Part shown: positions 52,894-54,111 of the stretch, piece by piece | Layout: every line of letters starts with the position of its first letter | Position numbering within the stretch: position 1 is the stretch's first letter | From: Escherichia coli | GTDB taxonomy: Bacteria > Pseudomonadota > Gammaproteobacteria > Enterobacterales > Enterobacteriaceae | Direction: 5' to 3' (one strand) | DNA length: 64,000 nt | Assembly: GCF_003334815.1 (NCBI RefSeq) | Contig: NZ_QOWO01000006.1 | The notes under the pieces: model-generated | Told to the model about the DNA's origin: nothing | Databases searched by the model: none | What the model saw: the letters and a program-made list of their open reading frames with translations, nothing else | Program-made: the position numbers and the translations under genes

Positions 52894-54111
52894 TTACAGT
52901 GATTTAAGCGCGATGTTCTCATCTATCAGCAGTTTCGCATCAAACGTTTTGCCGCTCTGGATCCATTTGCGAATTGGGCGAATCTCACGCCCCTGATTCA
53001 GCGTGACCGCACCGATAAGCACGCCGTTTTGCAGATTAAACCAAATCGCCTTCTGAGTTTCCGGGTTGCCACGACAAAGCCAGTCATCGCCACGCATATC
53101 GCCAATAAACTGTAAGTTATCACTGTACTGATCGCTCCAGAACCACGGCGGCGGCAGTAGCGGTAGCGGTAGCCCTAACATTGCGGCAGCGGCAATTTGC
53201 GCCTGGTTATTGGCGTTTTCCCAGCTTTCGCAGCGGTGTAGTGCACCATTATCAAGACGAGTGATTGCCACATCGCCACCGGCAAAGATCGCGGGATCGC
53301 AGGTGCGGCAAGCCTCATCAATGACAATGCCATTGGCAGTATCAAGGTTGGCCTCGCGAGCCAGTTGCTCGTTGGCGCTGATACCAATACCGTAAATCAC
53401 CACATCAGCCTGAAGCGTTTCCCCACTTTGCAGCGTCAGTTCTACTTTTTCACCATCGACCACATGTTCAATGGCATTATTGAGCAGAATGCGCACACCA
53501 GCCTGCTGGTGGCGCTGTAAAAGATAGCGTTGCACGGGCGGTGGTGCATTACGGCCCATGACGGTTGCCGCCAGTTCAATCACTGTCACCTTACATCTGC
53601 GCTGCGCTGCGCTGCGCTGCGTGGCGCTGGCAGCCAGTTCCAGACCAATAGTTCCGGCACCGATAATCACGACTGACCGTTCGGGCTGCAGAACTTCTCG
53701 CAGTCTGGCGGCATCACCGGCATGGCGTAGGGTAAAGCAGCGTTCTCCCAGTGCATCAAGCAACGGCAGCGGTCGAGCTGCCGCGCCGGTTGCTATAAAA
53801 AGCTGATCCCAGTGCCAGCTTTCGCCGTTGGTTAACACTAACTCTCGTGTGTCGCGACCCAGCGTTTTGATGGTTACACCGGAATGCAGATGAACATTGT
53901 TTTCCTGCCACCAGTTAGCGGGTAACACCTGCTGTAACTGCGGGGAATCTTCCAGCAACATGGATTTCGAGAGTGGAGGTCGTTCATAAGGAAGATGTCG
54001 CTCATCGGAAAACAGATGCAGCTCACCGGTGAACCCTTGCTGGCGTAGCGAGGCCGCAGCCATTGCCGCCGCTTGCCCGCCACCGACAATAATGATCGTT
54101 TTTTCTTTCAT
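52894..54111 (-). CDS. hcaD: 3-phenylpropionate dioxygenase ferredoxin--NAD+ reductase; carries in-frame pentanucleotide repeat
   Basis: 405-aa [25 protein letters not shown]...; FAD/NAD GxGxxG motifs; contains ...[15 protein letters not shown]... encoded by the (GCTGC)n tract. Confidence 0.9.
53596..53630. repeat. pentanucleotide tandem repeat inside hcaD: tCTGC (GCTGC)x4 GtGGC GCTGg
   Basis: Read directly at 53596-53630; four perfect GCTGC units flanked by degenerate copies. Confidence 0.85.

Follow-up and report, generated by a model that had tools for sequence, protein, structure and literature searches.

The window, that is the whole stretch of 64 kb of Escherichia coli DNA that was analysed, contains the hca gene cluster, and hcaD occurs in it as an allele encoding 405 amino acids. 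The genes of the cluster, with their positions in the window, are the following:

52894-54111, minus strand: hcaD, 405-aa allele; an open reading frame that matches NF007286 and encodes K-12 HcaD except for a five-residue insertion.
54121-57126, minus strand: hcaB, hcaC, hcaF and hcaE, upstream of hcaD in the same operon and all full length (270, 106, 172 and 453 aa, respectively).
57262-59451, plus strand: hcaR (regulator) and hcaT (transporter), both intact and named by annotated homologous loci.

By synteny with annotated genomes, the hcaE-F-C-B-D operon ends with hcaD and adjoins hcaR and hcaT; the product of hcaD is the ferredoxin-NAD+ reductase subunit of the 3-phenylpropionate/cinnamate dioxygenase, and growth on 3-phenylpropionate is lost upon deletion of hcaE-hcaD (PMC10249474). 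Regarding the identity of the product, the 405-aa HcaD scored 853.4 bits against the NCBIfam equivalog NF007286 (cut-off 447) and 607.1 bits against NF042949 (cut-off 450), only ~8 bits under the equivalog scores of the 400-aa allele; the Pfam entries on its record are PF07992, PF00070 and PF14759, and the three-domain fold of the FAD-dependent ferredoxin reductases (Pyr_redox_2 plus Reductase_C) is present. The preliminary description had treated hcaD as a core gene, but the hca cluster is accessory and not strictly core, because the hcaD region has no match in 1078 of 5426 complete E. coli genomes (~20%).

At the far end of the window, positions 63716-63737 carry five substitutions in 22 nt compared to MG1655, LAU-OXA, CH459 and MINF_8D, and the alignment to these genomes stops at ~63759. 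Annotated genomes have a trmJ-iscR intergenic spacer of either 361 or 452 nt, and the cluster of substitutions probably reflects a variable intergenic element.

Within hcaD, a short repeat tract is found, composed of two parts:

53597-53621, minus strand: five pentanucleotide units without mismatch, (CTGCG)x5 on the plus strand and, as read in the coding direction, (CGCAG)x5, where K-12 has two units.
53622-53630, minus strand: imperfect continuation of the repeat, TGGCG-CTGG on the plus strand, unchanged in every allele examined.

Positions 53594-53630 of the plus strand read CAT-(CTGCG)x5-TGGCG-CTGG, and Tandem Repeats Finder (TRF) reports 53597-53629 as a repeat of period 5, with 6.6 copies and 85% matches. 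The in-frame pentanucleotide repeat that had been noticed in hcaD as four perfect units of GCTGC is indeed there; the register matters, since reading in steps of CTGCG yields five perfect units, against two in K-12. No other perfect repeat of period 5 with at least three copies is present in the 64 kb; when the window was simulated 200 times with a second-order Markov model, such repeats averaged 0.065 per simulation and none was longer than 16 nt, so that the hcaD tract, with its 25 nt, exceeds the chance expectation. As for the reason why a hotspot lies here, a DNA hairpin was considered and dropped: upon folding as single-stranded DNA, the 5-unit and 2-unit tracts had, on both strands, energies no better than their dinucleotide shuffles (z-scores of -0.68, 0.84, -0.55 and 0.21).

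A second short tandem repeat lies within hcaD at 53157-53173 (GTAGCG, 2.8 copies, TRF score 34); this tract is also length-polymorphic, because one contig (L019) has a 6-nt in-frame deletion at 53168-53173 and with it one GTAGCG unit fewer.

The hcaD gene of K-12 (DH5alpha and MG1655) has 1203 nt, equal to 400 aa, and two units; on direct alignment, the window corresponds to K-12 plus exactly 15 nt, or three units, and it is otherwise identical over 111 nt. The statements of the preliminary description that K-12 HcaD has 400 aa and contains ATQRRCKV, that the frame in the window has 405 aa, and that the difference amounts to exactly three 5-nt units all agree with these results. Among the 5426 complete E. 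coli genomes surveyed, 4348 have this part of hcaD, and the 5-unit allele occurs in 0 of the 4348; no reference in this set thus carries the same tract and a 405-aa product, an occurrence that would have spoken against an expansion. Alleles of 1, 4 and 6 units are likewise found in 0 of these 4348 genomes. The 3-unit allele is present in 11 of them, which fall in at least four backgrounds by identity class, O157:H7 included; six 3-unit genomes were fetched, and RefSeq annotates hcaD as a frameshifted pseudogene in all six. All the remaining matches listed have the 2-unit span, more than 99% of the hcaD-bearing complete genomes carrying two units only, and it is clear that two units, and with them the 400-aa HcaD, are the ancestral and overwhelmingly common state.

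Despite its absence from complete genomes, the 5-unit allele is real: public protein records with several NCBI accessions have precisely this 405-aa sequence, which is encoded on 11 contigs. Its carriers are GCA_003334815.1 (the assembly of the window, contig QOWO01000006.1, 100% identical to it over 21 kb), GCA_026118905.1 and Logan assemblies of other runs, one 11-kb contig with five units being recorded in at least 20 samples. That the additional 15 nt are an artefact of sequencing or assembly, created at a short GC-rich repeat in a single draft genome, as the lack of the allele in complete genomes and the draft status of the window's assembly might suggest, is extremely improbable, considering that the same product and the same DNA tract recur in independent NCBI assemblies and in the Logan ones, and that a tract of 25 nt is far below the length of a sequencing read.

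At the protein level, the extra residues fall within the NADH-binding unit, whose elements in the 405-aa HcaD are the following:

53644-53661, minus strand: GxGxxG motif G151-A-G-T-I-G156 of the NADH-binding Rossmann unit; G151, G153 and G156 are invariant in the family alignment.
53599-53613, minus strand: the five extra residues S167-A-A-Q-R171, located from the translations and the family alignment; their placement is arbitrary by one repeat register.
53575-53592, minus strand: beta-2 strand K174-V-T-V-I-E179 with its conserved acidic end; E179 is nearly invariant, and the strand spans 174-178 in the AlphaFold2 model.

The SAAQR insertion follows helix alpha-A and precedes strand beta-2 of the beta-alpha-beta unit, and the alignment to rubredoxin reductase (3fg2) and BphA4 (1d7y) has a five-residue gap in the homologues exactly at this point. 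An insertion near the second nucleotide-binding region had been anticipated, and it does lie inside the NADH unit, starting 11 residues after the G151-x-G-x-x-G156 motif. In an alignment of 144 family representatives (≤59% identity), the third glycine of the motif and the acidic residue are separated by 18 residues in 142 sequences and by 19 in the other two; the spacing is 18 in the 2-unit allele and 23 in the 405-aa one, which departs from the canonical NADH unit in that motif and E179 are both present while the distance between them is off. In the AlphaFold2 model of the 405-aa protein, the whole fold is kept (mean pLDDT 97.0, pTM 0.93), and the insertion is predicted to form a loop or short turn that is added between helix 154-165 and strand 174-178, with confidence falling to an average of 87 over the block 161-170 containing the insertion; Foldseek returned TM-scores of 0.90-0.93 with putidaredoxin reductase (PdR), BphA4 and TodA (~0.9 to 3lb8, 8pxk, 2gr3 and 4emi). 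In the Rossmann topology, the connection between alpha-A and beta-2 lies at the sheet edge, on the side opposite the nucleotide, and for this reason the insertion is plausibly tolerated; the strong length conservation of the family argues that it may not be cost-free.

To place the 405-aa protein among its possible relatives, the predicted product was built for each copy number and looked up by exact sequence, and the contigs were counted. The counts are semi-quantitative, being biased by clonal sampling, by the behaviour of gene callers and by covering the K-12-type N-terminal haplotype only:

0 units: truncated product; no contigs.
1 unit: product ending in ATQM; 1 contig.
2 units: 400 aa; at least 1000 contigs.
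3 units: product ending in SADVR; 181 contigs.
4 units: product ending in SAAQM; 42 contigs.
5 units: 405 aa; 8 contigs.
6 units: truncated product; 2 contigs.
7 units: truncated product; none on the K-12 haplotype, 28 contigs in a Shigella boydii haplotype.
8 and 11 units (in frame, 410 and 415 aa) and 9 and 10 units (truncated): none in the collection.

The alleles of 1 to 7 units differ by whole repeat units alone, with identical flanking sequence, and all of them were confirmed at the DNA level, those of 1, 4, 6 and 7 units in the DNA of fetched contigs. Subject to the biases just given, the counts drop as the tract lengthens and the in-frame alleles are not enriched, the out-of-frame 3- and 4-unit alleles outnumbering the 5-unit one. 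In the 7-unit Shigella boydii contig (L024, 2039-2901), the hcaD frame after the frameshift has 165 aa, compared to 229 aa in the frameshift alleles of E. coli, and a fragment of an IS transposase (HTH_Tnp_1) comes next after it; hcaD is therefore further decayed in that Shigella lineage.

As regards the genetic backgrounds, neighbouring alleles line up within lineages in ladders whose steps are of 1-3 SNPs each, a scale at which recombination could blur them. In the ETEC O6:H16-type background, the complete genome 99-3165 (two units) is separated by two SNPs from contig L021 (four units), which is one SNP away from L004 and L006 (five units); a 4-unit haplotype thus sits on the path from two to five units. 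In a second clade, the hcaD SNP 53505A is common to five 3-unit complete genomes and to contig L022, which has four units and differs by one SNP from the 3-unit genomes, e.g., cS100a. The sub-lineage of the window can be recognised by 58329T together with an inserted T (+T) at 42899 that shifts the frame of yphH; it includes the window and contig L005, both with five units, along with the complete genome 52F4, which has three units as assembled; L005 and 52F4 are one SNP and 10 nt apart.

The yphH gene (ROK family, 397 aa in K-12) is split at 42086-43286 into two open reading frames of 292 and 135 aa by the extra T in a T-run; among the other genomes examined, this change was found only in 52F4, where RefSeq annotates yphH as frameshifted. 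Long-read error was considered for the indels of 52F4, but the yphH frameshift is common to the window, hence this indel, at any rate, is genuine; the 3-unit call in 52F4 is putative. In another 3-unit strain, WP5-S17-ESBL-10, IS421 (IS4-like) interrupts csiE just past hcaT (contig L007, 25984-28614); the window does not have this insertion.

The 5-unit allele itself occurs in two backgrounds that are ~1% apart (209 SNPs in 21 kb), yet identical across hcaD, and in the ETEC-type background its flanks are four SNPs from the 2-unit strain 99-3165. Instead of two independent expansions, the allele could have been transferred inside a SNP-poor segment of ~2.6 kb; as both backgrounds natively have, and share, a K-12-identical hcaD, independent expansion and import look alike. 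In the ETEC-type background, the 4-unit intermediate haplotype favours expansion within the lineage over import. Recurrence of the kind expected from a slippage-prone microsatellite is found across the series: three units occur in at least four backgrounds and four units in at least five flank haplotypes, with stepwise neighbours within lineages.

Taken together, it is very probable that the tract is a coding-region microsatellite changing its length by replication slippage, with the reading frame being lost and then restored. Slipped-strand mispairing is suggested because only whole units set the alleles apart, within unchanged flanks, a pattern that is its signature. The preliminary description had proposed slipped-strand variation in a single in-frame step of three units: slippage stands as the best explanation, but the 5-unit allele is one rung of a ladder from 1 to 7 units, in which the out-of-frame rungs are commoner. 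The series would begin with the gain of one unit on the ancestral 2-unit tract, producing a frameshifted and truncated hcaD; the lengthened tract would then continue to vary stepwise; natural isolates have alleles of 1, 3, 4, 5, 6 and 7 units, five units being the first in-frame state above the wild type. Slippage, in its standard model, adds no more than n-1 units per event to a tract of n units. The 2-unit tract has one unit of register for misalignment, therefore passing from two to five units in one event would be impossible, and at least two events would be needed, from two to three units and then from three to five, directly or via four. On this model the frameshifted 3-unit intermediate would be obligatory, so that the ancestry of the window's hcaD would include a pseudogene, with five residues as the scar of the later restoration of the frame; the restoration may have been either selected or the one-in-three neutral outcome of further slippage. 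A shorter route, the tandem duplication of 15 nt of the 2-unit sequence in one step, was ruled out: it would have left an internal TGGCG behind, and there are only 25 nt of period-5 identity and no 30-nt stretch of period 15. The resulting 405-aa allele would be read not as adaptive, but as neutral or slightly impaired.

A more elaborate reading, unlikely but worth setting out, is that in E. coli and Shigella the tract, once expanded past two units, has become an incipient contingency locus, with the 405-aa form as its functional ON state. Shifts from three to four, four to five, five to three, and up to seven units would then toggle the 3-phenylpropionate dioxygenase off and on, and the 405-aa state would be re-selected when catabolism of phenylpropanoids in the gut pays; if true, it would be a natural case of a switch arising out of a 2-unit repeat, in a species regarded as devoid of simple-sequence-repeat switches.

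The stronger form of this idea, with hcaD as an established contingency locus switched on and off frequently via its tract, is less probable still. Copy number does toggle the reading frame, several allele sizes occur inside single lineages, and pentanucleotide tracts serve as switches in other bacteria (PMC5909438). On the other hand, a long tract is not the norm of the species, two units being found in the matches listed, apart from the 11 3-unit genomes, among 4348; the occurrence of an identical 11-kb contig in at least 20 samples points to stability of the 5-unit allele, and hcaD encodes a catabolic enzyme instead of a surface or restriction-modification function. Moreover, the tract has at most seven units, and those of classical contingency loci are longer.

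Even less credit is given to the possibility that the five residues were selected for altered cofactor handling, stability or partner docking of HcaD. The allele persists and has spread clonally, it is present in two backgrounds, the remaining hca operon is intact and the AlphaFold2 model keeps the fold, all of which speaks for it; against this, the out-of-frame 3- and 4-unit alleles are commoner and the in-frame 8-unit one is not found in the collection, the nearly fixed distance from glycine to acidic residue argues for constraint against insertions here, the AlphaFold2 confidence dips in the block bearing the insertion, and the site would lie, by the standard Rossmann topology, across the sheet from the nucleotide.

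Turning back to slippage through a frameshifted state, its mechanism is well known, and hcaD is a new locus for it and no new principle. The closest precedent is lacI, whose three CTGG units were reportedly described as a frameshift hotspot of E. coli by Farabaugh, Miller and colleagues in 1978; through slippage, whole units are added to or lost from this tract, and such changes dominate among the spontaneous frameshifts of lacI. Both genes have a short repeat of 2-3 units inside an E. coli coding sequence and share the slippage mechanism; they differ because the lacI unit has 4 nt and its variants are laboratory mutants, whereas the hcaD unit has 5 nt and its alleles are natural and fixed in lineages, with the tract ratcheted to seven units and one allele back in frame with a five-residue insertion. 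Contingency loci, such as the tetranucleotide tracts of Haemophilus, the CTCTT repeat used for switching in the opa genes of Neisseria and the phase-variable mod genes (PMC5909438), resemble hcaD in that intragenic copy number sets the frame, and opa also in having a pentanucleotide unit; unlike them, hcaD has a wild-type tract of just two units, it is a gene for a catabolic reductase, and its 5-unit allele is seemingly clonally stable. As for the family of BphA4, putidaredoxin reductase and TodA, hcaD belongs to it by the full-length equivalog match of HcaD, the TM-score of ~0.9 and the hcaEFCBD context; it is set apart by the five additional residues between alpha-A and beta-2, the solved homologues and 142 of the 144 representatives having the same 18-residue spacing as the 400-aa allele. 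A full-text literature search found no description of the repeat in hcaD, the term "hcaD" mostly matching unrelated medical abbreviations.

In conclusion, natural isolates document how a 2-unit repeat in a metabolic gene of E. coli may become a hotspot of recurrent inactivation and then ratchet upward, and the series contains a frame-restoring allele with a five-residue scar in a length-conserved part of the Rossmann fold. In practical terms, annotation and pangenome pipelines will present hcaD as intact, "frameshifted" or split according to copy number, and the tract is a potential marker for fine-scale typing within clones. Finally, the 405-aa allele is a natural test of how far the alpha-A/beta-2 connection of the NADH-binding domain tolerates an insertion.
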